Under the pieces are notes generated by a model. The model was given only the letters and a program-made list of their open reading frames with translations, was not told the DNA's origin and did no database searches. A program made the position numbers and the translations under genes. DNA of 64,000 nt from a virus: IMG/VR virus record IMGVR_UViG_3300026078_000018; one strand, given 5' to 3'. The first letter of the stretch is position 1. The number at the start of each line of letters is the position of its first letter. This document shows, piece after piece, positions 8,626-64,000 of the stretch.

Positions 8626-11600
8626 GACCTCAGCTGCTGTCGCGGCCATGCCGGGCAACCTCAACACGCCGGTCCTGGCGCCGCTGTACGCCGACGGGAT
8701 GCCGCTGGCCGCGCTCGGGCAGGCCCTGTCCGGCACTGGCTCGGCCTCGGCGCCCGCCAGGTTCTGGTCCACACCGCCACGGGCGGCCGCTGACACCACT
8801 CGGGAGGTGTTGCAGGTCTCCCTCGGCGCGGCCCGCACCCTCAACCGCGTGTCCGTCTCGCTGCCCCGCTTCCCGCACACCAGCTGGCTGCAGGCCTACG
8901 ACGACACGACCGCGACCTGGATGACGCTGGTCGACGCAGGCGGCAACGCCGCGCAGGTGTCATTCACCGACTCTCTGCCGCCGGTGGTATCCGTCGGTGT
9001 CACCGACACCGGACGGCGCCACCCCGCGCACTACGGCGCCGGACACTGGGTGCCCACGACTTTCGAGTTCACCCCCGTCACCACCACCCAGCTGCGGCTC
9101 GTGCAGGTGCGTGTGCCCTCCGGCGCCATCCCCGTCGGCGTCACCGGCAGTCCCCAGCCCTACCCCCTGGGAGCCCGGGACCTGGTCGTCGGCTACGCCA
9201 CCGACACCCCCGGCGGCGCACCGCTGCGCACCGGCGCGATCGCCACCACGGCCGACATCCTCGGCTCCACCATCACCCACACCCTGCTGCGCGCCGACGC
9301 CTGGGGTCTGCCGATCGGCCGCACCTGGCGCTCGGCACCGATGCCGACCGCCGACTCGGTCGTGGGACTGTACGTGGACTGCCGCGACGCTCTGGGCGCG
9401 CCGCAGCTGGTAGACCGGCTGTATCTGGACCCGATCACCTCCGGCGTGTCAATGTGCGTGTATTACACCTCCGACGCGCCGATCGCCGACACCTTCCCGG
9501 CCTCCGATGCGCCGATGGGCGCCTACGTGGTGCCCTCAGTCTCGGCCCCAGTCATCTCCAACGGTCTCTTGACCTTCAGCGGCACCTCCTGCTATCTGGA
9601 CATCGCCGCGAGTGCCGTGGCGTTCGACCCCGGCAGCCCGTTCGCGCTGGGCTTGTCATTCGCCCCCGTGTACGCCTCCACCGCGGCCGGGCCATACACG
9701 CTGCTGGACGCCGAGGGGTTCACTGTGAGCTTTGCCGCAGGCGTGCTCACCGCCTCCATCGGCACCGCGCAGGCTTCGCTGGCGCTGTCATTCGCGTCCG
9801 GGACGCCGCTGGTTGTTGGCGTCTTCTCCGACGGCGCCACTCTGTCTTTGTCGGTCGGCGGCGTCGGGCAGACGGCCAGCACTGCCGGGGTGAGAGCGGT
9901 GGGCAGATCGGCATCGATCCGGCTCGGCGGCGCTCAGGGCGCAACCCCGGCCACCTCCGACATGTCGGTGTCAGCGCTGGCACTGTGGCAGTGCGGCGCC
10001 GCGCAGGCACATGCCGGGCTCGCCGCCTTCCTAACATCACCGGATTCGGTGATGCTGTTGCCGTCCACCGAGGTCGTCTCGCATCCCAGCGATGGCACCG
10101 TGCTGCGGGTCGACCCGCGGCGGGCCGACGCCGACACCGCCTTCGGGGTGTTCGGCGCCCCCGGGATCGACCTGTCGCGGGTGCGGTGGATTCCTTTGGC
10201 TCGTGACGCGGTAGCGCGGTCGGGGGCCTTGGCCATGGCCCCGATGCTCGCGACTCTACTGAAGATCGAATTCACGAACCTCGCTCCGGCGCCGCTTGAG
10301 ACCACCGGCGGTGTGCTCACGTCGGCGCCGCTGCTGGATTCCACACGGCAGTCGCAGCCCTCGGTCAGCTCTACCGGCTCCCCGGATCCGGGCACCGGTG
10401 TCATCTCGGCGAACGGCGCCTCGAACTACTCCGATATGCGTAGGTTGCCTGCTGCCACCACTTACCCGGTATCGCCGACCGAGGCGCTTTACGCGCCGGA
10501 CCCGCAGGTTGCGTCCCGTATCAACGACGGGCCCGGTTTCGGATTCACCCGCTGGCAGACGCCCGCATCGCCGGTGACACCGCGGCATGCGGGAGTACAC
10601 ACCGACGCTCCGGTCCAGACGTCGATCACGCAGCGGCAGACGTTTTTCGTCGCACTACGGAAGATCGCGCTGGGCCGGTTCCAGAACGGCGCCGCCCCGC
10701 TGGATTACGCCCGGTTGGTTGAGACCACTGACGACGCCCTGGGCCTGGGACCGACCGGGGGCGCAGGTCTATGGGAGCGGGCTAATGGCCGTTTGGTCAC
10801 TCCCTCCCCAGCCGGAGGACGCCGGATTGTCACCTCCCTGCCCTACGTCAGCCACCATCCGGTGGTGGCAGTGCAGTTCGCCTCGACATGTTCGGACGCT
10901 GCCGGAGTCATCACCGACGCCGACTTCACCGCCCCAGACTTCTCCGCCTGGTCGATGATCGGGGACGCCACCGTCGCCGTCGGCACCGGCTACGCCTCAG
11001 CAGTAGGTCACGCCGCCGCGCTCACCCGGCACGGCGGCGCCTCCGGCGGCATCGCCTCGGTTCAGACGCTCACCCCGGGCCGTACGGGACGTCTGTACGG
11101 TGCGGTGCGGCTGTACGCGCCGACTGACGCCTCGGCGCCGTGGCAGCTTTCACTGGTCAACGGCGACGGCACCATCCTGGCCCAGGCGAGTGCGACACCG
11201 ACGGCAGGGCAGGTGCTGGAGTTCACCTGCCAGCTGAACCTGGACGTGCCGCTCGTGTCCGGTGTGGATACCTGGGGCACCTACGACAACACCGGCACCT
11301 GGGCTTCGATGGCAGCTCATGGCAGCTATGCCGTCGTCTCCGGCGCCGGGCTGTGGATCCATGACGTCTCCGTCCACCTGGCCCAGACCGGCGTCGATTC
11401 CGACACCGTCCTGATCGACAGCCTCGCCATGTTCTACGACCCGATCACCTGGGAAGTTTCGGCCGACGGCGGCACCGATTGGTTTCCCGTCGCCGACATC
11501 CGCAACGACCCCGCAGGGGTGCTCGTGCTCCCGCCCGCCACGACCGGGACCTCGCTGATGTGGCGCGCCAGCTGTGATGCACCCGGGGTGAGCATCAGCG

Positions 11601-11785
11601 CAGTGGCCCTGCGCCCCTGGTACGAATTGCGCGCGGGCGGAGTGCGCCCACAACCGCCGGGAATCCCGTCCGGGCCGCTGCTTTCCCCCGCCGATCACTT
11701 CGGACCCATCGAGGAAGATCCTATGTGGATGGCCTGGGACCGCGGGGTGCCGCGCTCCTGGTGGGCATCGGGCCGCTCCTTCTGA
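8618..11785 (+). CDS. large minor tail/baseplate protein with beta-sandwich domains
   Basis: 1055 aa, beta-rich, WEVSADGG..W motif; last gene of the tail operon. Confidence 0.65.
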   Translation: MPETSAAVAAMPGNLNTPVLAPLYADGMPLAALGQALSGTGSASAPARFWSTPPRAAADTTREVLQVSLGAARTLNRVSVSLPRFPHTSWLQAYDDTTATWMTLVDAGGNAAQVSFTDSLPPVVSVGVTDTGRRHPAHYGAGHWVPTTFEFTPVTTTQLRLVQVRVPSGAIPVGVTGSPQPYPLGARDLVVGYATDTPGGAPLRTGAIATTADILGSTITHTLLRADAWGLPIGRTWRSAPMPTADSVVGLYVDCRDALGAPQLVDRLYLDPITSGVSMCVYYTSDAPIADTFPASDAPMGAYVVPSVSAPVISNGLLTFSGTSCYLDIAASAVAFDPGSPFALGLSFAPVYASTAAGPYTLLDAEGFTVSFAAGVLTASIGTAQASLALSFASGTPLVVGVFSDGATLSLSVGGVGQTASTAGVRAVGRSASIRLGGAQGATPATSDMSVSALALWQCGAAQAHAGLAAFLTSPDSVMLLPSTEVVSHPSDGTVLRVDPRRADADTAFGVFGAPGIDLSRVRWIPLARDAVARSGALAMAPMLATLLKIEFTNLAPAPLETTGGVLTSAPLLDSTRQSQPSVSSTGSPDPGTGVISANGASNYSDMRRLPAATTYPVSPTEALYAPDPQVASRINDGPGFGFTRWQTPASPVTPRHAGVHTDAPVQTSITQRQTFFVALRKIALGRFQNGAAPLDYARLVETTDDALGLGPTGGAGLWERANGRLVTPSPAGGRRIVTSLPYVSHHPVVAVQFASTCSDAAGVITDADFTAPDFSAWSMIGDATVAVGTGYASAVGHAAALTRHGGASGGIASVQTLTPGRTGRLYGAVRLYAPTDASAPWQLSLVNGDGTILAQASATPTAGQVLEFTCQLNLDVPLVSGVDTWGTYDNTGTWASMAAHGSYAVVSGAGLWIHDVSVHLAQTGVDSDTVLIDSLAMFYDPITWEVSADGGTDWFPVADIRNDPAGVLVLPPATTGTSLMWRASCDAPGVSISAVALRPWYELRAGGVRPQPPGIPSGPLLSPADHFGPIEEDPMWMAWDRGVPRSWWASGRSF

Positions 11786-11793
11786 TCTCTCAG

Positions 11794-11834
11794 CGAGACG
11801 CCGGTATATACCGTTGGTATATACCGGCGTCTCG
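11794..11834. terminator. perfect 19-bp inverted repeat (terminator and/or paired GGTATATACC site)
   Basis: CGAGACGCCGGTATATACC-GTT-GGTATATACCGGCGTCTCG right after the tail operon. Confidence 0.6.
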
Positions 11835-11964
11835 GCTTGTCAGCGTATGTATGATCGCGCATTTCTGTGGCATATGACGTAGGAAAACACTGACGATATC
11901 CGCCATGACCTCTACACTGTCTTCTGAGATAGGCATCTGATGCTATGGCCGGAGGTGAATTCGT

Positions 11965-12279
11965 ATGTCACTGGACCTTGAGCTGGCCGTCAACCGCACA
12001 CTGATGCGCGCACGCGCCGCCGAACGCGCCCTGCACGACCATGGCATCCCCTGGAGTCTGGAGACCGCAGGGCGACGTGTCGCCGTCGAGCCGATGCTCG
12101 GTGACGACCGCATCGTCTTCACAGGTGTGATCCCGGCCGAGCTGCCCGAGCGCTGTTGGCTGATGCTGCGCTGCGGGGAGGACATCGTGGACATCGCCGA
12201 GCTGCACACCGCCCCCGGCGGTGGAGGGACCGGATGCTGGACCCAAGTCCGGCACGAAATCGTGATGGGGACAGCGTGA
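11965..12279 (+). CDS. hypothetical protein
   Basis: GGAGG RBS; stop overlaps the helicase start. Confidence 0.65.
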   Translation: MSLDLELAVNRTLMRARAAERALHDHGIPWSLETAGRRVAVEPMLGDDRIVFTGVIPAELPERCWLMLRCGEDIVDIAELHTAPGGGGTGCWTQVRHEIVMGTA

Positions 12280-13805
12280 ACAGCCTGTATCGGGATCCGC
12301 AGAACCTGAAGGATTTCCAGCTAGAAGACATCGTCACGCTGCGCAGGCTGGGCCGCGGAGTGCTCGGCTGGGACACCGGCATGGGCAAGACCCGGGGCCT
12401 GCTAGGCCTGGCCTGCTGGCTGCTGGACAAACAAGAGATCGACACCATCCTGCTGGTGTGCGAGCAGAACAAACTCGGCCCCGACGAATGGGAAGGCGAC
12501 ATCAAAGCCCTCACCACCGCCACCTGGGCCAAATACCACGGCGCGCGCCGATCCAGCGTCCTGCAGGGTGAGCTCCCGCAGATCATCGCCACCACCTACG
12601 AGACAGCGCGCGAGGACATCGCAGTCCGCGACGCCGAGGGCCATCTGATTGCCGATGGGCCGCTGACTCGGGCACTGGCCGGTCGCCGGGTCCTGATCGC
12701 TTACGACGAGATGCCGAAGCTGGCGATCGCCTCCTCAGGGCTGTATCAGGCCCACAACTACCTGGTCGAGCGCATCGGGGCGTGCGTGGTCGGGCTGACT
12801 GCCATGGCCTACACCGTCGACTACGAATCGACCTACAACATGTTCCTGCTGGTCTGCCCGGACGTGCTGCCGACCCGGGAGCAGTTCGAGGAGTTGTGTG
12901 TGGTGCGGCGCAGAAGGCGCACCAACAAGGCGATCTTCAACGACCGGGCGGTACGACAGTACCTGCTGGAGCCGATCCGGCCGTACCTGCTGCGCCGCCG
13001 CAAGACAGACCCCGAGGTCGCGCACCTTTTCCCGAAGATGAGGGAGAAAACGCTGCACACTGTGATGACCCCGGACCAGGCTGAGGCCTACCAGACCATG
13101 GAGGCGTTCGGCCGCGTAGAAGCCGAACGCCTTGGCGAAGAGCCGTCCGGCCTGTACACGGTGCTGCGGATGATCGCTTCCTACCCCGAGGCACTGCTGG
13201 CCGCCGACGGCGCTTTGGCCGCTGAAACAGTCCAGGTCCTCGGAGCCGAATGGCTCGCCTCGATCCGGCCCGGCAAGCTGGACATGCTGCAGAAGCTCGC
13301 CGCCCACGCTGCCGCCGAGGACCGCAAGACGGTGGTCTTCTCGTTTTTTGGGCCGACGATCCTGCCGCTGTTGGCCCGCGATCTACAGCATCTGGGAGTT
13401 CCGATCCTGACGTTCTACGGGGCCGCGACCAAGGCCCGCCGGGAGTCGCTGGCCGCGTTCCGAGCGCACAAGGGCCCGGCACTCCTACTGGCCTCCAACG
13501 CCGCGGCCCGCGGGATTAATGTCCCGGAGGCCTCGCGCCTGATCGAGTATGAGGGTGCGCTGACGTACGAGATCGGTGCACAGCGGCGCAACCGCATCCA
13601 CCGCCTGGACTCGCCCCACGACGAGGTGGTCTGCGCCACGCTCATCGCCGACGGGACCCTGGAGCAGCCGATCGCCGAGAAAATGCTGCACCGCAACTTC
13701 GAGACCGATGCCGTCAACGGCGACGAGTTCGCAGCGCCCCACGGGTTCACTACCGCCTCGATCCGGCGCTCGAAAATGGACGTCTGGCAGAACGCTGTCG
13801 CCTGA
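12276..13805 (+). CDS. SNF2-family helicase/ATPase
   Basis: DTGMGKT, YDE, LRRRK, ARGIN and QR.NRIHR motifs; GTG start inferred. Confidence 0.85.
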   Translation: MNSLYRDPQNLKDFQLEDIVTLRRLGRGVLGWDTGMGKTRGLLGLACWLLDKQEIDTILLVCEQNKLGPDEWEGDIKALTTATWAKYHGARRSSVLQGELPQIIATTYETAREDIAVRDAEGHLIADGPLTRALAGRRVLIAYDEMPKLAIASSGLYQAHNYLVERIGACVVGLTAMAYTVDYESTYNMFLLVCPDVLPTREQFEELCVVRRRRRTNKAIFNDRAVRQYLLEPIRPYLLRRRKTDPEVAHLFPKMREKTLHTVMTPDQAEAYQTMEAFGRVEAERLGEEPSGLYTVLRMIASYPEALLAADGALAAETVQVLGAEWLASIRPGKLDMLQKLAAHAAAEDRKTVVFSFFGPTILPLLARDLQHLGVPILTFYGAATKARRESLAAFRAHKGPALLLASNAAARGINVPEASRLIEYEGALTYEIGAQRRNRIHRLDSPHDEVVCATLIADGTLEQPIAEKMLHRNFETDAVNGDEFAAPHGFTTASIRRSKMDVWQNAVA

Positions 13806-13817
13806 TTATCTCACTGG

Positions 13818-13860
13818 ACGACGAAACCACCCCGCCATTCGGGGTGGTTTCGTCGTTTCT
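13818..13860 (+). terminator. intrinsic terminator
   Basis: ACGACGAAACCACCCC / GGGGTGGTTTCGTCGT stem followed by TTCT. Confidence 0.75.
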
Positions 13861-14030
13861 GTCATAGCACCAATGTTCTGATTCGGTCTCGTCGCTTGCT
13901 CTTCCCGCCCCTGGTGCGCTGTACTGGCTGAATCAGCCTGTTCAGTAACCGCAGGGAACGGCAACGCGTATACGAGTAGATCCAAGTACATAAAACCCCG
14001 CCAGGCAGTATGGGCACATAGGTACACATT

Positions 14031-14122
14031 GACGCGTGCGTGCGCACATGCGTGCGCGTACCTGCGCGGGCGCGCGCATACGCACGCACGGGTGCGCGGG
14101 CGGGCGCACGCACGCACGCGCG
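14031..14122. repeat. alternating purine-pyrimidine (GC/GT/AC) tract upstream of the Rep-like gene
   Basis: GCGTGCGTGCGCACATGCGTGCGCG...GCACGCACGCACGCGCG. Confidence 0.7.
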
Positions 14123-14168
14123 GTATATAGAGCACGGCCACGCCCCAACGGCCGCAGGAGATCCCACG

Positions 14169-38441: not shown

Positions 38442-38861
38442 ATGCCCCGAAAGGCAGTCCCTTCGAGCACGAAATGCGTCACCTGCCACCACCCTCGCAG
38501 CTTCCACCCCGGCGGTGGCCGATGCCTGGCTGCACAGTGCTCCGCAGAGTGTAAGAAGTTCAAGATGCCGTCGCCTGCGGCGGCCACGACGATGCCCGTC
38601 GCGCCGGATCCCCGTGAACTGATCGCAGCACTGGATGTCCTGACCACCGTCGTACAGCGCGCGCCCAAGACCTACCGTGCCAAGGCTGCGATCAACCTGG
38701 AATGGTTCATCAACTCCTTCCCCACCCTGCGTAGAGCCGCCGGATCCTCAGACCGGCCCCTACGTCAAATTCTCGCCGACTGTCGCCAACCGCCCGCCGC
38801 GCCCCAAGACGCGGAGGTGGCCCCCGACGATGCCAGCAGAGAAGACACACCAGGACCATGA
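38442..38861 (+). CDS. Cys/His-rich hypothetical protein
   Basis: CVTCHH.RSFH....C....C...C; GAGG RBS. Confidence 0.55.
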   Translation: MPRKAVPSSTKCVTCHHPRSFHPGGGRCLAAQCSAECKKFKMPSPAAATTMPVAPDPRELIAALDVLTTVVQRAPKTYRAKAAINLEWFINSFPTLRRAAGSSDRPLRQILADCRQPPAAPQDAEVAPDDASREDTPGP

Positions 38862-41331
38862 CGGCCTGCTGTACCAGTTCGCCAGCGCACCGCCGCTGAG
38901 CATCACCGCCGCATTCGGCAGCGACGACCAGGACGACGAGTACCACAACTGGGCCCTGCAGGAATCCGAGTCCTGCCCAACCTGTGGCGAACACCATCCG
39001 CCGGAGCAGACGGCCAAATGCCCCTATGGCGGCTGCTACGACGGTGAGCACTGCCCCAACGACTGCCCCTACGAGAGCGGCCACACCAACTGGGACCAGG
39101 TCTATCCGCACCTGCCCGACACCATGCACCGCGGCATGTCGCTGCGCCTGCCCCACGACTTCGACCCGGCTGCGCCCCCGCACCGCATGGCCCGCACCAT
39201 CGCCGAAAACCTGCGCGAATACGGCTCCGGCACCCACTGGACCCCCCACGAGCACATGGCCCGCCACTACGCCGCCGTCAGCCACCGCAACGGCGACGAC
39301 CTCCACGTCATCCTGCACGCCGCCAAACCCGACCGCGACGACATCGAAGAAGACCCCCACGAACTGCTCAAACACGACGTCATCGGCTTCGGCGAACACC
39401 CAGACGCCGAAATCCCTCTACAGCGCGGCGTACCCGTCCACCTGACCGGCATCTCCTACCGCCGCCCCGACCAGAAGTCCTGGACCCGCCACGACTTCAA
39501 GACACCCATGGAACACCGGGCTGTTCTACGCGAGGCGATGCCGTCGACCAAACACCCGCGGCCGGACGGCTTCTACACCACCGTCAGACACGAGCCCCGA
39601 GACACCGACCAGCGCGGCTGGCACGGCACCACCATGATCGGACACCACCAAGGCCGCCAGGTCACCGAGGCCTACTTCCACGTCCACCCCCACGGCGACG
39701 CCATCGACATCCACTCCATCATCACCCACGACGGACACGAGGGACACGGCTACGCCTCCGCCCTCATGGACGACCTCTACGCCACCTACCCCCACGCCGT
39801 CATCAACCACGGGGCACGAACCGACAACGGAACCAACTGGTGGCAGTCCTACGAAGACCCGGCCCCCGACCGCAACACCCACAACATGCCAGCCTCCGAA
39901 TACGAGGAACACTTCGACCCGCAAGAGATCGAAAACGACAAGAAAACCAATCAGAACAGCGAGACCTATCTCAACACCCTCCACCACACCGCAGGCGGAC
40001 AGCCCTGGCTACCCCACGACCGCTACTTCGGCCCCGGCCACCCCGACCTCGACCCGCGCCTGTTTGACGGCACCCAGCTCAAACCCGCATGGCGGCGCGC
40101 GCTACTCGGACTCGTCAACCGCGCCTTCGCCGACTACACCTACCGCGTCCCCGGCGCCTGGCAACGCTGGGCCCGCGCCTACCTCGCCGGATCCCAGGCC
40201 TCCCACTGGTACGGCAACAACGACCTGGACGTCCTCGTCGGCATCGACTACAACGTCTTCCGGCGCGCGCAGCCGCGGTACCGGACGATGAGCGACCGCG
40301 ACATCGACGAGATGCTCAACGCCCGCGCGCACGAAGTCTGCGACCCAGCGCGCTGGTTCACCATCAACGGGCAGCACCTCGGACCCTTCGACTCCACGGT
40401 CTACATCAATCCGGACAGCTTCGACATCCGCAAGATCAAGCCGTATGCCGCCTACGACCTCGGCGCCAACCGCTGGACCGTCGAACCGATGGAAGTTCCC
40501 GACGACTTCGGCCCGGACAAGCTGCCGACCGCCGACTTCCTCTACGCCCGCTCCCTGGCATCCCAGGTGCGCTCCCTCAAGAAGCTCCCCGCTGGGCAGG
40601 CACAGGCCCTCGGGGCCGCGCTGTACGACAAGCTGCACGGTGAGCGCCACGACGCTTTCAGCGGCCACGGCGGAGGCCTCTACGACGTCCGCAACGTGGC
40701 CTGGAAGTACCTGGCGCTGCACCCAGAGAAGCCTATGGAGCAGCTGGTCGCATGGAAGCGTGCTGAGCAGGCCGAACCGGGAGCGCAGCACACCGCGGGG
40801 ACGAGCGGCCCCGGTTCTGATGCCGACTTCAACGACGACTCGGTGATGATCGCGCTGGTGCCGCCGCGGGACGTCGCCGAGCGCCTCGTGCTGCCCGACG
40901 GCAAAGGCGAGCCCGCCGACCAGATGCACATCACCCTCGCCTACATCCCGCATGTCCCGCCGGGTGATCTCGGACGTCTCACCGGCACCGTGGCCGAGTG
41001 GGCCTCCCGCCAGCGGCCCATCGTCGCGCGGGTCCAAGGCGCCGGGACGTTCGTGAACCCCGGCAAGCATGTGTTGTGGGGCGCCGTCGACATTCCTGGT
41101 TCTTCCCACCTGCACTCTTCGCTGGTGGACGCGCTGCGGGCAGCCAAGTTCCAGCCGAGTACTGATCACGGATTCACTGCGCATTTGACCATTTCATACG
41201 AGAAATACCACGTGCGGTTCCTGCCTAAGATCGATCCAGTGTCCTTCACCTGTCACAGCGTGTACGTCTGTCAAGGTGACAACTGGCGCCCAGTGCCCGT
41301 AGGAGGCTCAACCGGTGGAAAAGTGACGTGA
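38830..41331 (+). CDS. polyvalent protein: Zn + ADP-ribosyltransferase-like + GNAT + Pol-beta nucleotidyltransferase + 2H phosphoesterase
   Basis: MHRG..GTHWT..ARHYA..EIPL; GHGYASALM; GSQAS..DLDVLV; HITL/HLTI; GGAGG RBS. Confidence 0.75.
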   Translation: MPAEKTHQDHDGLLYQFASAPPLSITAAFGSDDQDDEYHNWALQESESCPTCGEHHPPEQTAKCPYGGCYDGEHCPNDCPYESGHTNWDQVYPHLPDTMHRGMSLRLPHDFDPAAPPHRMARTIAENLREYGSGTHWTPHEHMARHYAAVSHRNGDDLHVILHAAKPDRDDIEEDPHELLKHDVIGFGEHPDAEIPLQRGVPVHLTGISYRRPDQKSWTRHDFKTPMEHRAVLREAMPSTKHPRPDGFYTTVRHEPRDTDQRGWHGTTMIGHHQGRQVTEAYFHVHPHGDAIDIHSIITHDGHEGHGYASALMDDLYATYPHAVINHGARTDNGTNWWQSYEDPAPDRNTHNMPASEYEEHFDPQEIENDKKTNQNSETYLNTLHHTAGGQPWLPHDRYFGPGHPDLDPRLFDGTQLKPAWRRALLGLVNRAFADYTYRVPGAWQRWARAYLAGSQASHWYGNNDLDVLVGIDYNVFRRAQPRYRTMSDRDIDEMLNARAHEVCDPARWFTINGQHLGPFDSTVYINPDSFDIRKIKPYAAYDLGANRWTVEPMEVPDDFGPDKLPTADFLYARSLASQVRSLKKLPAGQAQALGAALYDKLHGERHDAFSGHGGGLYDVRNVAWKYLALHPEKPMEQLVAWKRAEQAEPGAQHTAGTSGPGSDADFNDDSVMIALVPPRDVAERLVLPDGKGEPADQMHITLAYIPHVPPGDLGRLTGTVAEWASRQRPIVARVQGAGTFVNPGKHVLWGAVDIPGSSHLHSSLVDALRAAKFQPSTDHGFTAHLTISYEKYHVRFLPKIDPVSFTCHSVYVCQGDNWRPVPVGGSTGGKVT

Positions 41332-49602: not shown

Positions 49603-52600
49603 ATGGCCGCTCAGCAGCCCCGCCAGACCCCCAAGCCCAAGGGTCAGGTCAGCGCCGCCGACGAACGGAGCTTCGCCGCGCTGCAGGCGGCGTTCCGCCG
49701 CGGCCGGTCCAGCGATGACCCCCAGGTCGCCGAGATGAAGGCGAACCGGCGGGCCGCTGCGGGGCGCAAGCAGGGCTCGTTCTCATCCTCCACCACCGTC
49801 GGCTCCGGCGCCCTCACCTTCGCCACCGGCCGCCCGCGGGACCCGCTGTTCTACTGGAAACAGAACAACCTCCCGTATGAGCTGACGCGCGCCGATGAGC
49901 TGATCCGGCTGCGGGCGTACTGCCGTCTGCTGTACGCGTCGCACCCGGTGATCGCCTCCTGCGTCGACATCTACACCAAGTACCCTCTTCTAGGTATGGA
50001 ACTTCGCTGCTTTGCAGGGGAAACGCCCGTCATCACAGAGATGGGAACGCGCCAGATCAGAGACCTGGCCGGTGAAACCCACTCGATTCTGACCACCGGC
50101 GGCAAGTGGGTGGATGCACAGTTCGACAGCTACGGACAACAGCGGCTGCTGCGACTGGAAGTAAGGCGCAATGGCCGTACCCGCGAGATCTTCACGACTG
50201 CTGGGCACCGGTGGTATGTCTGGGGCACAGAAGGCCCAGGCCGCGGCAACGCTGGGGTTCAGAACCCCTCAGCCAAGCTGACTTGGGAAGCCGTCCAAGA
50301 GATTCGGCGTCGATACTCGGAAGGGGGAATCTCCCAAGCAAAGCTCGCCGCAGAATATGGCGTTACTCAGCCGATGATCGGTGGCATCGTGCGGGGAACT
50401 TCGTGGAAGTCCTCAGGGGAGGAGTCCCACCAGACCATCCGGCTTCACCCGGTCAAGAAGGAAATCGAGACCTCGCAGCTTGAGCCAGGGATGAAGCTGG
50501 TCAGCTGCTACCCCACCGCGCGGGTCCACTCGACCAACCCAAGCCCGTTCGGTATCGCCCACGGCATGGTCGTGGGCGACGGGACCCTGGCGACCTCCGG
50601 CCGAGGTGCGACCGTTGACCTCTGGGGCGAGAAGGACGCCCAGATGCTCAAGTACTACGCCGGATGTGAGACGTACCAGGTCACCGACACCTGCATCCGG
50701 GTCACCAACCTCCCCGCGTACTTCAAGGCCCTCCCCGCCATCAGCGAGTCACAGTCCTATCTCTACGGCTGGCTGGCAGGCTACTTCGCTGCTGACGGAA
50801 CTGTCTCCAAGAAGGGTGAAGTCCTGCTGGACTCCGCTTCGCGAAGCAACCTCCAGTTCGCGCGCGACGTCTGTCACCGTCTGGGAATTAAGACCCACGA
50901 CATCTATGAATACGTAGTCGCTCAGAAGAAGACGCCCCGGGGAGCGATCCTCAAGGACTGGCGCGGATACCGACTGCCCATCGACCCGGACTCTCTGACC
51001 GAAGCGTTCTTCTGCATGACTCACCATCTGGAACGGTGGCAGACGCGCCCAGAGCGTGTTCGTGAGCGCTGCGAGGACTGGACGGTCATCAGCGTTTCGG
51101 AAACTGATCGCATCGAAGAGGTCTTCTGCGCGAAGGTCCCGAACACGGAGGCCTTCACCCTCGACGGCAATATCCTTACAGGAAACTGCAAAGACCAGAA
51201 GATCACCGACTTCTACACCGAACTGTTCCTCGACGAGGACCGGCTGAACTACCCCGAGTTCCTGCTCAAGGTGGGCCGCGAGTATTGGACCTGCGGTGAG
51301 GCGTGGCCGTTCGCTACGTTCAACGAGCCGCTGGGGATCTGGGAGCACGAGGAGCTGCTCAACCCCGACGACATCGAAGTCCAGGCCTCACCGTTCCTGC
51401 GGGATCCGCGGTTCCTGATCCGGCTGCCGGAAACCCTGCGCAACGTCATCATGCGCCGCGAACCGGCCTGGGAGTACGAGCAGCTGATGGCCGCCTACCC
51501 GGAGCTGGCGAACTACGCCAGCAACGATTCGAAGATGCCGGTCAGCAACATCTTGCTGCGGCAGCTGAAATTCGAGACCGACACGTTCAACCCCCGCGGC
51601 GTCCCCATCCTGATGCGCGCGATGCGCGCCGTGATGCAGGAGGAGATGCTCAACGCCGCCCAGGACGCTATCGCAGACCGCCTCTACACCCCGCTGATCC
51701 TGGCCCGCCTGGGCGCCTCGGCCACCGAGCTCGGCACGCAGACCCCGTGGATCCCCACCCCCGACGACCTGGAGGAGTTCGAGCAGGCCCTCGACGCGGC
51801 GCTCGCGGGCGACTTCCGGGTGCTCACCTACCACTTCGGTGTGCAGATGGACGAAGTCTTCGGCCGCGAATCCATGCCGGACCTGTCAAATGATTTCGAA
51901 CGGCTGGAGGGCCGGATCCTGCTGTCCTTCGGCCTGTCCGCGACGCTGCTGACTGGCGCCGGGGAAGGCGAGACCTACGCCGCCGATGCCCTCAACAAAG
52001 ACCTGGTGTCCCAGCTGCTCACCACCTACCAGTCCCTGCTCAAGAGGCACTACAGGCAGAGGGCCCTGATCGTGGCCGAAGCCCAGGAGCACTTCGACTA
52101 CGAGGAGCGCGGCGGCAAACGCTACGTGAAATACGAGGAGATCCTGGAGATCGACGAAGAGACCGGCGAAGAGTCGATCATCCGACAGCCGAAACTGCTT
52201 GTCCCCGACATGTACATGAACACCATGTCTCTGTCTGACGACGAGCAGCAGCGCGGGTTCCTGGAGCAGCTGCGCGAGACCGGCGTCCCCATCTCGATGC
52301 GCACCCGCCTGACCAACATCCCCATCTCCTTCGAGGAGGAGCTGGAACGCTCCCAGGACGAGCAGGTTCAGCTGGCCGTCGCCGAACAGGAAACTCGCAA
52401 GCGCCAGTACCTGGAGCTGCGTAACCAGGGCCTGCCGATTCCCTCCGACCTGCGCGCCGACTTCGAGCCGCAGGCCATGCAGGCCCAGATCCCCTCGGCC
52501 ACCGAGGGCATGCGCACCCCCGTCATGGGCCTGGATCCCGGCATGCCCTACCCCAACCTGGCCCCCACCCCCGAAGACGTCGCCCAAGACCCCACCGCGG

Positions 52601-52896
52601 CCCCGCCCGGCATGCCCACCGAACCCGGCGCCGACCTCGCCGCCGAGGAAGACCCTGCGGTCCAGGAGGAAGACGAGCAGAGGCCCGACGAATCCGACGA
52701 GCAGCGTGGCGGCATGCCCAAGGACGCCGTCCTGTATCGGAAGGCTGCCCGCATGCGCGAACTCGGCCGCACCCACCGCCCCCTGCTCGCTGAAGACGGC
52801 ACCGCGCGCCGCCGCACCCGCCTGGACGAACCCCGCCACATCGGGCTGCGCAGACACGCCCTGGTCGACGCCGACACCCCGCTGGCCGACGACTGA
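49603..52896 (+). CDS. portal protein containing an intein
   Basis: LYASHPVIASCVDIY..YPL, RGVPIL, acidic C-tail; location in the head module. Confidence 0.75.
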   Translation: MAAQQPRQTPKPKGQVSAADERSFAALQAAFRRGRSSDDPQVAEMKANRRAAAGRKQGSFSSSTTVGSGALTFATGRPRDPLFYWKQNNLPYELTRADELIRLRAYCRLLYASHPVIASCVDIYTKYPLLGMELRCFAGETPVITEMGTRQIRDLAGETHSILTTGGKWVDAQFDSYGQQRLLRLEVRRNGRTREIFTTAGHRWYVWGTEGPGRGNAGVQNPSAKLTWEAVQEIRRRYSEGGISQAKLAAEYGVTQPMIGGIVRGTSWKSSGEESHQTIRLHPVKKEIETSQLEPGMKLVSCYPTARVHSTNPSPFGIAHGMVVGDGTLATSGRGATVDLWGEKDAQMLKYYAGCETYQVTDTCIRVTNLPAYFKALPAISESQSYLYGWLAGYFAADGTVSKKGEVLLDSASRSNLQFARDVCHRLGIKTHDIYEYVVAQKKTPRGAILKDWRGYRLPIDPDSLTEAFFCMTHHLERWQTRPERVRERCEDWTVISVSETDRIEEVFCAKVPNTEAFTLDGNILTGNCKDQKITDFYTELFLDEDRLNYPEFLLKVGREYWTCGEAWPFATFNEPLGIWEHEELLNPDDIEVQASPFLRDPRFLIRLPETLRNVIMRREPAWEYEQLMAAYPELANYASNDSKMPVSNILLRQLKFETDTFNPRGVPILMRAMRAVMQEEMLNAAQDAIADRLYTPLILARLGASATELGTQTPWIPTPDDLEEFEQALDAALAGDFRVLTYHFGVQMDEVFGRESMPDLSNDFERLEGRILLSFGLSATLLTGAGEGETYAADALNKDLVSQLLTTYQSLLKRHYRQRALIVAEAQEHFDYEERGGKRYVKYEEILEIDEETGEESIIRQPKLLVPDMYMNTMSLSDDEQQRGFLEQLRETGVPISMRTRLTNIPISFEEELERSQDEQVQLAVAEQETRKRQYLELRNQGLPIPSDLRADFEPQAMQAQIPSATEGMRTPVMGLDPGMPYPNLAPTPEDVAQDPTAAPPGMPTEPGADLAAEEDPAVQEEDEQRPDESDEQRGGMPKDAVLYRKAARMRELGRTHRPLLAEDGTARRRTRLDEPRHIGLRRHALVDADTPLADD
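50008..51186 (+). mobile_element. LAGLIDADG intein (393 aa) with an HTH insertion
   Basis: N-terminal CFAGET, TTAGHRW block B, VVGDG and LAGYFAADG, C-terminal ILTGN followed by Cys. Confidence 0.9.
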
Positions 52897-60440: not shown

Positions 60441-63400
60441 ATGCTGAAGTTCGCCACCGCCGAGATCCTCTCGGCGCATCCCAGCGCCCACGCCACGCCC
60501 GCGCTGGCCCGCACAGCCCATCGCGCCGACTTCAGCCATCACCAGGTGCGCCCCGGCTTCCTGTATGTCCGCTCCCGCGCCATCTCCAGTCGTTGTAACG
60601 ACAACTTCGACGAGTTCCCTGCTGAAGAGCTTGAGAAGTCGTACAAGACGTTCATCGGCAAGCCGGTGTTCGTCAACCACGTCAACCACGACACCGACCG
60701 GGCTCGCGGAGTCGTCATCGACGCCGCCCTACACCGCGACCGCAACCCCGACGGCAGCCCCGACACCTGGGTCGAAGTCCTCATGGAAGTCGACGGCCTG
60801 CGCTTCCCCAAGCTCGCCGCCGCCATCATGGCCAAGCCACCGCGCGTCTACGAGACCTCCATGGGCTGCGACGTCGACTACTCCATCTGCAGCGCATGCG
60901 GCAACAAGGCCACGCGCCCGGAGGAGTACTGCCGCCACATCCCCGCTGCCAAGGGCACCCCCTACGCGGTCACCGACCACAAGACCGGCACCCGGCAGAC
61001 CAGCCCTATCCGCGAGATCTGCTACGGCCTGCGGTTCTTTGAGAATTCCCTGCTGGTCGAGGCACCGGCCGACCCGACCGCGCAGCTGCTTGGGGTGGAC
61101 GCCACCGGCCTGGACAAGACCTCGGCCGCCCGCCGCACTGCAATGCCGTCGCAGAACCACTCGCGTCCCGAAGGCTTCTACAGCACCATCACAGACCCCT
61201 ACGGCGACAAGGTCAGCCCCGGCCACTGCCCGCTATCCGACCCGAACTGCGATAGCAGAGCTCACAGCTCTGACGTCTATGAAACCCTCCACGAGATGGA
61301 GGGTTTCGATCCTGCCAGCCGCAGCCACCCCCAGCGAGTGTCCTCCATCGAATATGCCGTCCACCCCTGTGGTAAGCATGTTGATGTTCATGAGCTGAAA
61401 ACCGAACCCGATGAGACCGGCAATGGCTATGCCAGCGCTCTCATGGACGATCTGTACGACGCCTATCCTCACGCGATCATCAACCATGGGCGCCGTACCA
61501 GGGAGGGCGCGGGCTGGTGGTCCTCATATGAGGACCCCGACCCGAGCCGCTCCATCGCGGATACGAGCCGCTACGCCCCCAGCCGCACCGCCCGCTACAC
61601 CGATACCGGCCCGGTTTGCTCTCGCTGCCACCACGAGGCAGGCACCGGCCCCGGCTGCCCCAAATGCGACACCGCCCGGCTGTTGAAGGGCGCCATCGGC
61701 GACCTCGACCTCGGCGCCGAAGGCCACGACATGGCCTGGCAGTACCGCGACGCTGGACCCACCGTCCACGGCACCTGCCGAAACTGCGGACGCACCACCG
61801 AGCTCGGCGCCCCCGGCATGCGCGGCGACAACACCAAGGCACCCTCTGCCCACAGCGGCCCCTGCCCGGCCACCGACCGCCACGCCCCCGACGCCGCCGA
61901 CCGACTCACCCACGCCGTCGACTACCTCCCCGAGCCGCTGCAGCCGCGCCACCAGTCCAGCCGCACCGCTGGCTACGGCTATGACGACCGCTACATCAAC
62001 TGCGATCAAGGACACTGCCACTGGGATCCCGAGCGCACCGGATCAGGCGGGATGCTCATCCACCACGGCGGCCACGTACTGCTCGGCCGCCGCGCCGACT
62101 GGGTCCAGCACCCCGGCACCTGGGGCATCCCCGGCGGCGCCCTACACGAGGACGAGACCCCCGAGGAAGGCGCCCACCGCGAAGCCACCGAGGAACTCGG
62201 CCCGCTGCCGTCCCTACAGCACACCCACACCCACCACGACGACCACGGCGGCTGGGCCTACCACACCATCGTCGCCGAAGCCCCCCACCGCTTCCACCCC
62301 GAAGGCGGCGACGCCGAAACCGACGAGTTCCGGTGGGTTCACCCTCGCGACTTCCCCGACTATGACCTCCACCCCGGCTTCGCCGCCTCCTGGCCCCATC
62401 TCGCCCCCCATGTCCGAGGAGGCGCACGTGCCGCCGTGAAGACTGCGACGCGCGCCGAAGGCCTGTCCTTCGAGCACGAGGACACAGAGACTGGCGGCTC
62501 CAAGTGGCCGATGCTGCGGACGCTGCGCGCAGTCCACCCGGAGCACGGAACTGTGGGCGCCCTGTCCTACTGGCTGCCCAAGACCTCACGCGGACCCCTG
62601 GCCATCAAGGGCGTTTACGTGCCCCAGCAGCATCAGCGCAATGGCGTCGCCACTGCCCTAATGGATGAGGTTCAGCGTATGCACCCGGCCTCGGCGATCC
62701 AGCACGGTGACCGGACCAATGCCGGGCGCGCATGGTGGGAGGCCTACAGCGACAGCGCCCCCAAACAGCTACTGCAGCGCGGACGCACCCTGGCCACCCT
62801 CACCACTGAGGCCATGCCGCCCCGGCACACCGACCCGGCCGACCACCCCTTCTTCCAGGAGCACCCGGTATCCGCCGCCCATGTGGTGGCTCACTGGGCC
62901 GACGCCACCCCCGAGGAGAAGAACCAGGGTGAGCGCTGGTACGCCGACGCGCACCTGCTGGCCCACGCCCTGGCCCACACTTACGCAGGCGGCGATACCG
63001 GCAAGGCGGCAGGCGTCATCTCCGCCTACTCCCCGCGCACCAGCTGGGCCGCCAACATGCACAACGCCGCCCGCTCTCTGGCATCCGGACGCGCCTTGAA
63101 GGTCGGCGAAGGACTGTCGATCATGGGGGTGCACCACAGCCTCGCCGACAAGATCATGAACGGTGAGCACTACGACAAGGTGCTGAAGGGCCCGAAGACC
63201 AACGCCTTTGCCAAGCTCATCCACCATGGCGGCATCGACCCCGTCACCAAGCAGCCGATGCCCCACGTCGTCATCGACCGCCACGCCCTCTCAGTCGCCG
63301 CAGGCCAACGCCTATCCGAAGACGACGTCTCAGGCTTCCCCTCTTCCACCCCCCACTACTACAACCACGTCGCCAAGATTTACGCCGACGCCGCTGCCGC

Positions 63401-64000
63401 CATCTCCAAAGCCGAAAACCGCACCGTCGCCCCCCACCAAGTCCAAGCCACCACTTGGCTCGTCCGCATCCGCCACAACCAGGAAGAAGACCGGAACCTG
63501 CGCGGCGGAGGCGGCAAGGGCCGCGTCAAGAACCAGGAAAACCAGCTCGGCCAGTGGCGCGACCTCCACCCCACGCTGCTGCCCGGCGGCGCAGGATCCG
63601 ACAACATGCACATGTCGGCGCGGGCATCGCTGAGGAATACTGGAGCCATGGACAGCGGCGATCACCAACACCAGGCAGCCGAGCACCAGCTCTGCACCAG
63701 ATGCGGACGCCGCCTGAGCCGAGACTGGGACCGCGGCGGCCAGCCCATGCACTGCGACGAATGTGGTCAGCCCGGACACCACCGCGAATGCTGCACCGGC
63801 CCCACCGACACCGCCAAAGCCCTCCAACAGCAGTTCAGCGGCGCATCCGGCCGTATCACCACCCACCCCTCCTACGGCAACGTCTACCGCGCCGACCACC
63901 CCAGCGGCTGGTACGCCACCTACCCCCACGGCGCCACATACCTCACCATCGGACACGCCGCCTCCGACGAACACCACGGCGACGCAGTACATCACGGCGA
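60441..64000 (+). CDS. prohead (capsid maturation) protease fused to GNAT, Zn, Nudix, GNAT, glycosylase-like and Zn modules; runs off the window
   Basis: Hand-translated with no stop (>1180 aa); GGAGG RBS; GKPVFVNH...TSMGC..CSACG..CRHI..FFENSLL..PADPTA; exact Nudix box; not in the supplied ORF track. Confidence 0.85.
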   Translation, partial: MLKFATAEILSAHPSAHATPALARTAHRADFSHHQVRPGFLYVRSRAISSRCNDNFDEFPAEELEKSYKTFIGKPVFVNHVNHDTDRARGVVIDAALHRDRNPDGSPDTWVEVLMEVDGLRFPKLAAAIMAKPPRVYETSMGCDVDYSICSACGNKATRPEEYCRHIPAAKGTPYAVTDHKTGTRQTSPIREICYGLRFFENSLLVEAPADPTAQLLGVDATGLDKTSAARRTAMPSQNHSRPEGFYSTITDPYGDKVSPGHCPLSDPNCDSRAHSSDVYETLHEMEGFDPASRSHPQRVSSIEYAVHPCGKHVDVHELKTEPDETGNGYASALMDDLYDAYPHAIINHGRRTREGAGWWSSYEDPDPSRSIADTSRYAPSRTARYTDTGPVCSRCHHEAGTGPGCPKCDTARLLKGAIGDLDLGAEGHDMAWQYRDAGPTVHGTCRNCGRTTELGAPGMRGDNTKAPSAHSGPCPATDRHAPDAADRLTHAVDYLPEPLQPRHQSSRTAGYGYDDRYINCDQGHCHWDPERTGSGGMLIHHGGHVLLGRRADWVQHPGTWGIPGGALHEDETPEEGAHREATEELGPLPSLQHTHTHHDDHGGWAYHTIVAEAPHRFHPEGGDAETDEFRWVHPRDFPDYDLHPGFAASWPHLAPHVRGGARAAVKTATRAEGLSFEHEDTETGGSKWPMLRTLRAVHPEHGTVGALSYWLPKTSRGPLAIKGVYVPQQHQRNGVATALMDEVQRMHPASAIQHGDRTNAGRAWWEAYSDSAPKQLLQRGRTLATLTTEAMPPRHTDPADHPFFQEHPVSAAHVVAHWADATPEEKNQGERWYADAHLLAHALAHTYAGGDTGKAAGVISAYSPRTSWAANMHNAARSLASGRALKVGEGLSIMGVHHSLADKIMNGEHYDKVLKGPKTNAFAKLIHHGGIDPVTKQPMPHVVIDRHALSVAAGQRLSEDDVSGFPSSTPHYYNHVAKIYADAAAAISKAENRTVAPHQVQATTWLVRIRHNQEEDRNLRGGGGKGRVKNQENQLGQWRDLHPTLLPGGAGSDNMHMSARASLRNTGAMDSGDHQHQAAEHQLCTRCGRRLSRDWDRGGQPMHCDECGQPGHHRECCTGPTDTAKALQQQFSGASGRITTHPSYGNVYRADHPSGWYATYPHGATYLTIGHAASDEHHGDAVHHG

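Follow-up and report, generated by a model that had tools for sequence, protein, structure and literature searches.

The viral record IMGVR_UViG_3300026078_000018 of IMG/VR was analysed as a stretch of 64,000 nucleotides (one strand, 5' to 3'; hereafter, the window), which is part of a large tailed-phage genome of the Streptomyces type. At its right-hand end lies a long open reading frame (ORF), which starts with an ATG at 60441 and runs without a stop codon to the last complete codon of the window, giving 1186 amino acids (aa). This ORF probably encodes a long, modular head protein of the "polyvalent" kind, whose N-terminal domain is the capsid-maturation protease and whose cargo would be packaged together with the protease, cut free and ejected. 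A first-pass annotation, made from the sequence alone, had proposed an open frame from 60441 to the window end encoding a prohead protease fused to six cargo modules or more; the frame is indeed open, and the protease and six cargo modules are all found by profiles, folds, paralogy or Cys/His patterns. The features of the ORF, all on the plus strand, are as follows.

60441..63998, plus strand: long ORF of 1186 codons, truncated at its 3' end by the window edge
60441..60518, plus strand: N-terminal leader, residues 1-26, of low model confidence, ending in R-T-A motif 1 (residue 24, motif scan; ALARTA/HRADF, the slash marking the end of the motif here and below)
60519..61133, plus strand: prohead serine protease domain of the assemblin/T4 gp21 fold (PHROG profiles, fold, invariant residues)
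60678-60680, plus strand: candidate catalytic His80 (invariance)
60858-60860, plus strand: candidate catalytic Ser140 (invariance)
60870..61028, plus strand: Cys-rich insert right after the candidate catalytic Ser (invariant C150, C153, C164, C194 and, in addition, H166)
60936-60938, plus strand: possible third catalytic residue His166 (invariance)
61134..61142, plus strand: R-T-A motif 2, residues 232-234, at the border of protease and GNAT 1 (P0122 deletion junction)
61143..61583, plus strand: GNAT-like module 1, residues 235-381, paralogous to module 2 but divergent, without a Pfam match
61584..61592, plus strand: R-T-A motif 3, residues 382-384 (motif scan, alignment ends)
61593..61961, plus strand: Cys/His module, residues 385-507, three CxxC pairs, zinc-ribbon-like, no Pfam family
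61962..61970, plus strand: R-T-A motif 4, residues 508-510 (motif scan, alignment ends)
61971..62438, plus strand: Nudix hydrolase module, residues 511-666 (PF00293; nearest solved relative RenU)
62136-62201, plus strand: Nudix box, residues 566-587, GX5EX7REUXEEXGU intact
62439..62447, plus strand: K-T-A motif 5, residues 667-669 (motif scan, alignment ends)
62448..62795, plus strand: GNAT acetyltransferase module 2, residues 670-785 (Pfam)
62796..63620, plus strand: DUF7178, predicted HhH-GPD-superfamily fold, residues 786-1060 (Pfam E 4e-35; fold match of the AlphaFold model)
63195-63197, plus strand: invariant Lys919 of the GPKT...V.DRH block
63276-63278, plus strand: invariant Asp946 of the same block
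63693..63794, plus strand: Cys/His cluster CxxC...CxxC..HH..CC, residues 1085-1118, a small zinc-finger-like module
63795..63998, plus strand: start of a further His-rich module, type unassigned, cut by the window edge

Because the frame is open, its G + C content at third codon positions (0.84) matches that of the real genes of the same 67% G + C window and its ATG aligns with residue 1 of the closest homologues, the long protein is regarded as real, though incomplete at the window edge. Close relatives are 1334-2138 aa long, and what is said below of the C-terminal end of this protein is taken from them only, as its own sequence stops at the edge. A fusion of separate genes by sequencing errors, a possibility raised already in the first-pass annotation, is rejected, since the protease and DUF7178 recur in one ORF in hundreds of homologues from independent assemblies. 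The whole window gave no near DNA match in phage or plasmid collections, and the exact 60-mer formed by its last 60 bases is absent from viral, genome and metagenome contig collections. The long protein is also strongly enriched in His (7.6%, against 3.3% when 12 other ORFs of the window are pooled), the share reaching 12.7% in the Nudix module and 11.1% in the C-terminal part (63621-63998).

The N-terminal domain matches two families in PHROGs, phrog_18299 annotated "head maturation protease" (E 5e-18) and a 1263-position family of unknown function (E 2e-51). In Pfam, residues 1-240 have no match at E<=5, and the gathering thresholds of Peptidase_S78, S78_2 and S77 are not reached by this domain; phmmer and profile searches of the PDB found no solved protease, but only Nudix matches and low-complexity noise. 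The AlphaFold model of the domain, built from 40 family sequences, has a pLDDT of 86 and a pTM of 0.77. Foldseek against the PDB gives T4 gp21 or herpesvirus assemblins as nearly all of the top matches, each of them weak (E ~0.02), and a second aligner places T4 gp21 (5jbl_A) at the top with a Z of 10.1 and a root-mean-square deviation of 2.6 A over 126 of 165 residues, followed by herpesvirus assemblins at Z 6.1-9.0 against an unrelated background of Z <6. In BFVD, 152 matches were obtained at E<=1e-3, many of them named prohead serine protease, COG3740 or XkdF; stand-alone versions of this fold (243-300 aa) occur there in Bacillus phage G, phiRSL1 and PaBG. Judged from the model, the N-terminal domain forms a sequence family of its own that shares the fold of Peptidase_S78, S78_2 and S77. 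The protease with a zinc insert that the first-pass annotation had placed up to about 61142 is thus borne out by the PHROG matches, the fold and the invariant residues described below; that annotation had let its proposal depend on a prohead protease fold, and such a fold is what the gp21 and BFVD matches indicate. Two BFVD matches to the protease model, A0A6J5N5R9 and A0A6J5RFH1, are uncultured-phage proteins of 620-680 aa named for ferritin/Dps domains, which suggests further fusions of protease and cargo, reminiscent of encapsulin cargo.

Among 251 relatives the residues His80 (in FVNH), Ser140 (in TSMG), C150, C153, C164, H166 and C194 are invariant, and those of the Cys-rich insert are also present in gp90 of mycobacteriophage Alice. 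In an hhalign alignment with T4 gp21, which is non-significant (E 0.19), the register places H80 on gp21 His85 and S140 on gp21 Ser140, presumably the catalytic residues of gp21. Enzymes of the gp21 class have an H/S/D triad, the third residue of which lies about 25 positions beyond the Ser (PMC5694885). Position Ser140+26 is occupied by the invariant His166, so that a triad of the herpes-like His-Ser-His type, accompanied by a Cys4 zinc site (C150, C153, C164 and C194), is possible; the other candidate for the third residue is D144. The Cys-rich insert is probably a zinc site. The leader preceding the domain may be a propeptide, and its R-T-A end is conserved in close relatives.

Gene order was compared with three relatives: the 154-kb Streptomyces "plasmid" pRLB1-9.1 (NZ_CP041653.1, Streptomyces sp. 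RLB1-9), a 152.5-kb contig of Streptomyces sp. A0642 (152,548 bp) and mycobacteriophage Alice. In all of them one or two small genes separate the homologue from the major capsid protein gene downstream, and in the window the portal gene lies upstream of the protease fusion. The fusion gene occupies the protease slot of the phage head module. In the complete records of pRLB1-9.1 and Alice, the protease PHROG matches the fusion gene alone, the profiles of Peptidase_S78, S77 and ClpP have no match, and S78_2 has a single sub-threshold match, which falls on the same protease domain (Alice gp90). The fusion protein therefore seems to be the sole recognisable maturation protease in these two genomes.

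When the whole fragment served as query, at least 384 homologues of 650-2000 aa were obtained, the majority of them located on Streptomyces or Kitasatospora contigs of 150-165 kb. The protease domain and DUF7178 are common to all of the 120 homologues listed, and the segments between and after them vary: Nudix is found in 19 of the 120, other modules in about three, and the order differs, Nudix preceding DUF7178 in some proteins and standing at the far C-terminal end in others. With the protease domain alone as query, an exhaustive search yielded representatives of 2,232 clusters at E<=1e-3. For the 150 of these that were listed (249-2557 aa), the protease domain starts in the first ~50 residues, mostly at residue 1-9; the 27 longest of them contain DUF7178 (16 proteins), Nudix (12), GNAT (2) and an Arr-like ADP-ribosyltransferase (1), and most of their residues have no Pfam match. 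The nearest relative, P0122 (2138 aa), is 90% identical in the protease, 75% in the zinc and Nudix modules and 79% in DUF7178, yet both GNATs are absent from it and other inserts are present; modules must therefore turn over quickly. The C-terminal end of 84 of the 120 relatives consists of a double CPxCG zinc ribbon, an acidic Pro-rich tail and a basic end, which in the present protein must lie beyond the window.

The family resides mainly on ~150-kb Streptomyces contigs and in cluster-C mycobacteriophages, in which the homologue is named "hypothetical protein" in all records listed, up to 2025. The circular "plasmids" or contigs of ~150-165 kb found in many Streptomyces assemblies carry an HK97-fold capsid protein, tail fibre proteins, ThyX and the protease fusion. 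By their gene content these elements are either genomes of phages or phage-plasmids, and their head module is related to that of cluster-C mycobacteriophages. In the literature pRLB1-9.1 is described as a plain circular plasmid, often lost, and a literature search for it as a phage found nothing relevant. A homologous gene is also seen in two overlapping frames (544 aa, then 881 aa) at positions 10001-14168 of the metagenome-assembled contig CAZWRK010000002.1, where the reading frame may have shifted, the assembly may be in error or the gene may truly be split; this 113-kb high-GC phage contig is binned to "Aquaspirillum", probably wrongly.

The borders between the modules are marked by a short motif, [RK]-T-A. 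The long protein contains five copies, where shuffled sequences lead one to expect 0.89 (P ~0.002), and all five stand at module boundaries; the four internal copies are exactly the module borders drawn in the first-pass annotation and coincide with the ends of alignments to close relatives. One example is the region missing from P0122, where AARRTA/MPSQ...[GNAT]...APSRTA/RYTDTG of the present protein corresponds to AAAKTA/RYTDTG. Over the whole family 645 copies were counted (~160 expected; permuted tripeptides 100-269), and a copy lies within 40 aa past the protease domain in 101 of 247 proteins (permuted motifs 7-21). In seven close relatives the sites stand at residue ~22, at ~225 and then at domain-sized spacing, the same module bearing the same flanks in different proteins. 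Even in the distant Alice gp90, which has six K/R-T-A copies, a K-T-A follows the protease domain. A broader motif, [RKH]-x-A, is present in 216 of 244 linkers and is too permissive to discriminate, and an unbiased count of enriched tripeptides over whole proteins was swamped by words from conserved domains and thus uninformative. By these counts the R-T-A and K-T-A sites are non-random boundary markers.

One of the putative cargo modules is DUF7178. Its AlphaFold model (pLDDT 92, pTM 0.89) was compared with 48,161 representative chains, and the top 22 matches all belong to the HhH-GPD superfamily, unrelated folds remaining at Z <4. The best match is the Ogg Tm1821 (3n0u_A; Z 10.5, 177 of 209 residues), and further matches include the queuine-salvage DUF2419 (8.4), MagIII (8.1), AGOG, Mag1, OGG1, EndoIII, MutY and AlkA; Foldseek agrees weakly. 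The HhH-GPD DNA glycosylase fold of DUF7178, two-lobed and all-alpha with a helix-hairpin-helix, is regarded as established at the level of the predicted model. By eye, GPK919T...V.D946RH resembles GRK120TA...VD138TH of Escherichia coli Nth, the hairpin Lys and the catalytic Asp of that enzyme, and the hhalign alignment to Nth is non-significant. DUF7178 shares its fold with the HhH-GPD DNA glycosylase superfamily (Ogg2 Tm1821, AGOG, MagIII, EndoIII and MutY, and also the queuine-salvage enzyme DUF2419) and has an invariant G-P-K-T...V-x-D-R-H block that by eye is similar to the hairpin Lys and catalytic Asp of EndoIII, but it has no significant sequence similarity to these enzymes and is part of a candidate virion polyprotein, not a stand-alone repair enzyme. 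A literature search on DUF7178 found nothing relevant.

As for the other modules, Nudix scores 57 bits against a cut-off of 21 in PF00293 (E 2e-15) and has the actinobacterial RenU (PDB 6uuf, E 8e-16) as its closest solved relative; NCBIfam adds nothing beyond sub-threshold Nudix matches. GNAT 2 exceeds the cut-off of PF00583 Acetyltransf_1 (26.2 vs 20.7 bits). GNAT 1 and GNAT 2 align as paralogues in the region of the acetyl-CoA motif (E 2e-12), and residues ~300-400 match GNAT-annotated Streptomyces genes by tblastn. The Cys/His module, with the pattern C393xxC396...C406xxC409...C446xxC449...C475, is 71-75% conserved in relatives, and the cluster at residues 1085-1118 has only sub-threshold zinc-finger matches in Pfam. 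In the relatives P0004 and P0122 an Arr-type (rifampin ADP-ribosyltransferase-like) module, just sub-threshold in Pfam, follows DUF7178 (residues 1168-1222 and 1460-1520, respectively), and the zinc-finger-like module replaces it here at the same position. The first-pass annotation had delimited the modules as GNAT (61143-61592), Cys/His (61593-61970), Nudix (61971-62447), GNAT (62448-62813), a glycosylase-like domain (62814-63647) and a CxxC..CxxC..HH..CC module (from 63648). The profile matches and intact box confirm Nudix, the Pfam score confirms the second GNAT, and the glycosylase-like domain is identified as DUF7178 with its predicted HhH-GPD fold; the Cys/His module has the expected CxxC pattern and was assigned to no family, and the last pattern recurs at residues 1085-1118. 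For the first GNAT, on which Pfam is silent, paralogy and tblastn support the C-terminal half only.

The window further encodes baseplate and virion structural proteins, two helicases, a DnaB-like helicase, a primase, a PolIII-alpha-like polymerase and a terminase-like gene, and, before the long ORF, a protein with a 2'-5' RNA ligase-like domain, a portal protein, a PLD-like protein and an amidase. The replication genes sit in a block apart from the head genes. Of the genes before the long ORF, the portal gene was delimited as follows.

49603..52896, plus strand: portal protein gene, interrupted by an intein (PHROG match in two stretches around the intein)

The portal intein (~50038-51186, ~383 aa) contains a LAGLIDADG homing-endonuclease domain, and its junctions read ...MELR/CFAGETPV... 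and ...ILTGN/CKDQ..., the slash here marking the junction. Upstream of the portal, an ORF of 884 aa (38677-41331) carries a C-terminal 2'-5' RNA ligase/LigT-like phosphoesterase domain, reminiscent of the RNA ligase that phage Alice has close to its portal gene. No Rfam family was found in the 56-64 kb region, and elsewhere in the window the protease gene has no antisense or direct match beyond chance 12-18-mers.

Some known systems resemble this architecture. In herpesviruses the UL26 precursor has an N-terminal assemblin and a C-terminal capsid-binding end and cleaves itself after Ala at short consensus sites; the extension brings the whole chain into the procapsid, and the protease is released inside the capsid by self-cleavage. 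The protein described here likewise has a predicted assemblin-fold serine protease at its N-terminus and a long C-terminal extension. The herpesvirus extension, however, is a scaffold and not a chain of enzymes, the triad and the cleavage consensus differ, and homology to the herpesvirus assemblin is detectable at the fold level only (Z 6-9). Among phages, T4 gp21 trims head-packaged enzymes such as the Alt ADP-ribosyltransferase at short motifs (PMC5694885). The T4 cargo proteins (Alt and IPI-III) are, however, separate gene products recruited by an N-terminal capsid-targeting sequence, whereas here cargo and protease form one chain, and T4 cleavage occurs after Glu, whereas the candidate site here is [RK]-T-A. 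A further counterpart is gp90 of Alice (cluster C, Bixzunavirus), which has a homologous protease domain including the Cys-rich insert (39% identity, E 2e-40), an equivalent location ahead of gp91 and the major head protein, and a long C-terminal extension (1511 aa) with K/R-T-A; this extension has no detectable module in common with the present protein, and Pfam finds in it only Phage_L5_gp82 and no DUF7178.

The concept nearest to the proposed one is that of the polyvalent proteins, head-packaged multi-domain effectors of phages and conjugative elements (Iyer, Burroughs, Anand, de Souza and Aravind 2017, PMC5512222). Like them, the protein joins unrelated domains in one chain (theirs number 2-15 and include GNAT, ADP-ribosyltransferase (ART) and Nudix-linked domains) and is encoded near portal or capsid genes; disparate domains in one polypeptide and a gene placed with portal/terminase-type head genes are both found here. 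Polyvalent proteins are predicted to be packaged in the head and injected and to gain and lose domains rapidly (PMC5512222), and the modules here likewise exchange rapidly. The survey, whose list comprises 131 domains, mostly finds a zincin-like metallopeptidase in the role of the processing enzyme, whereas here a protease of the predicted assemblin fold is the constant N-terminal anchor; beyond the survey, this anchor is apparently the only maturation protease of the phage, and the nearest relatives pair it with DUF7178. What is already known is therefore the concept of polyvalent proteins, and what is new is a protease as a constant anchor that apparently doubles as the maturation protease.

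Under the reading favoured here, the whole chain would enter the procapsid as one unit by means of the protease domain, the conserved C-terminal zinc ribbon and acidic tail, or both, as in the herpesvirus UL26 precursor. The protease would then cut the [RK]-T-A linkers and free the modules within the head, and the freed enzymes would be ejected alongside the DNA, to be the first to work in the new host. For the Nudix module the targets would be NAD/ADP-ribose-type nucleotides, such domains having been read as acting against immune signals derived from NAD/ADP-ribose (PMC9503650); the GNAT modules would target host proteins, as GNAT domains of such proteins have been read to do (PMC5512222), and the glycosylase-fold domain would act on DNA or on a modified nucleoside. 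The conserved linkers could double as short homologies for the exchange of cassettes between phages. The suggestion of the first-pass annotation that fusion to the protease would guarantee encapsidation of the payload is plausible in view of the gene's position, the lack of another recognisable protease and the analogy with UL26. A fuller version, which can be offered only tentatively, is that of a self-cleaving polyprotein in the manner of UL26, in which the sole maturation protease heads swappable payloads delimited by [RK]-T-A, including a virion-borne HhH-GPD glycosylase that would act on DNA or a modified base just as injection takes place, and which, delivered pre-made into the host, would serve as a first-strike anti-defence kit.

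Several observations weigh against a protease-headed, self-processed cargo protein. Links to solved proteases and glycosylases are non-significant at the sequence level, and both folds rest on AlphaFold models; the strict motif is absent from 36 of the 247 relatives, the pRLB1-9.1 protein among them, and from both borders of DUF7178 in the long protein; the major capsid proteins of relatives mostly lack [RK]-T-A, so that the motif may not be the general recognition site of the protease; and a literature search found no proteomic or other experimental data on cleavage, packaging or ejection for any member of the family. One alternative is an ejection protein of the polyvalent type that is packaged and injected intact, with a protease that matures the capsid and spares its own cargo and with [RK]-T-A as linker or recombination scars. 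Some polyvalent proteins, for example N4 vRNAP, are indeed packaged unprocessed (PMC5512222), and the missing motif in the relatives and in most of the capsid proteins examined would fit, as would the same flanks on the same module in different proteins, which transfer of cassettes alone can explain. However, a short strict tripeptide at domain-sized intervals is typical of polyprotein cleavage sites, and it follows the protease even in the 39%-identical mycobacteriophage protein. Moreover, a single unfolded chain of 1,300-2,500 residues would need to be threaded through the tail channel. Intact ejection is hence considered unlikely.

It is considerably less likely that the modules are no virion cargo at all, but parts of a late polyprotein which works on nucleotides or DNA in the infected cell and is fused for co-expression only. 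Nudix and HhH-GPD enzymes do have ordinary metabolic and repair roles, DUF7178 and Nudix also occur as stand-alone genes in phages, and the packaging of the modules is itself deduced. Yet the gene sits within the block for head morphogenesis, flanked by the genes for portal and capsid, and apart from the replication genes of the same window, its anchor domain is of a protease type that works within procapsids, and its fast-exchanged, conflict-type modules (GNAT, Nudix and ART-like) match known head-packaged effectors (PMC5512222). The least probable alternative, to which very little credence is given, is a catalytically dead protease fold serving only as a handle for capsid targeting or scaffolding. 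The domain is too dissimilar in sequence from characterised proteases for statistics on direct alignments, and giant phages have diverged, possibly inactive paralogues such as SPN3US gp117 (PMC5694885), but the invariance of His80 and Ser140 in 251 sequences, within motifs expected for the fold, speaks for activity, as does the failure to detect any other maturation protease in the two complete related genomes.

Head-packaged effectors decide the first seconds of an infection, and few routes for their recruitment are known, namely the capsid-targeting peptides of T4, MuF fusions and zincin-processed polyvalent proteins. Fusion of the cargo to one protein that is obligatory in every procapsid would be a simple and apparently very successful route, the family comprising more than 2,200 sequence clusters. 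It would mirror the herpesvirus protease-scaffold precursor and, if true, link the assembly strategies of phages and herpesviruses. In addition, a likely function is provided for a "hypothetical" protein of cluster-C mycobacteriophages and a predicted fold for DUF7178, and at least one ~150-kb Streptomyces "plasmid" is indicated by its genes to be a phage-like element. The boundary motif and the modular design could serve for the loading of chosen proteins into actinophage capsids, and the list of cargo modules may be read as a catalogue of candidate anti-defence enzymes.

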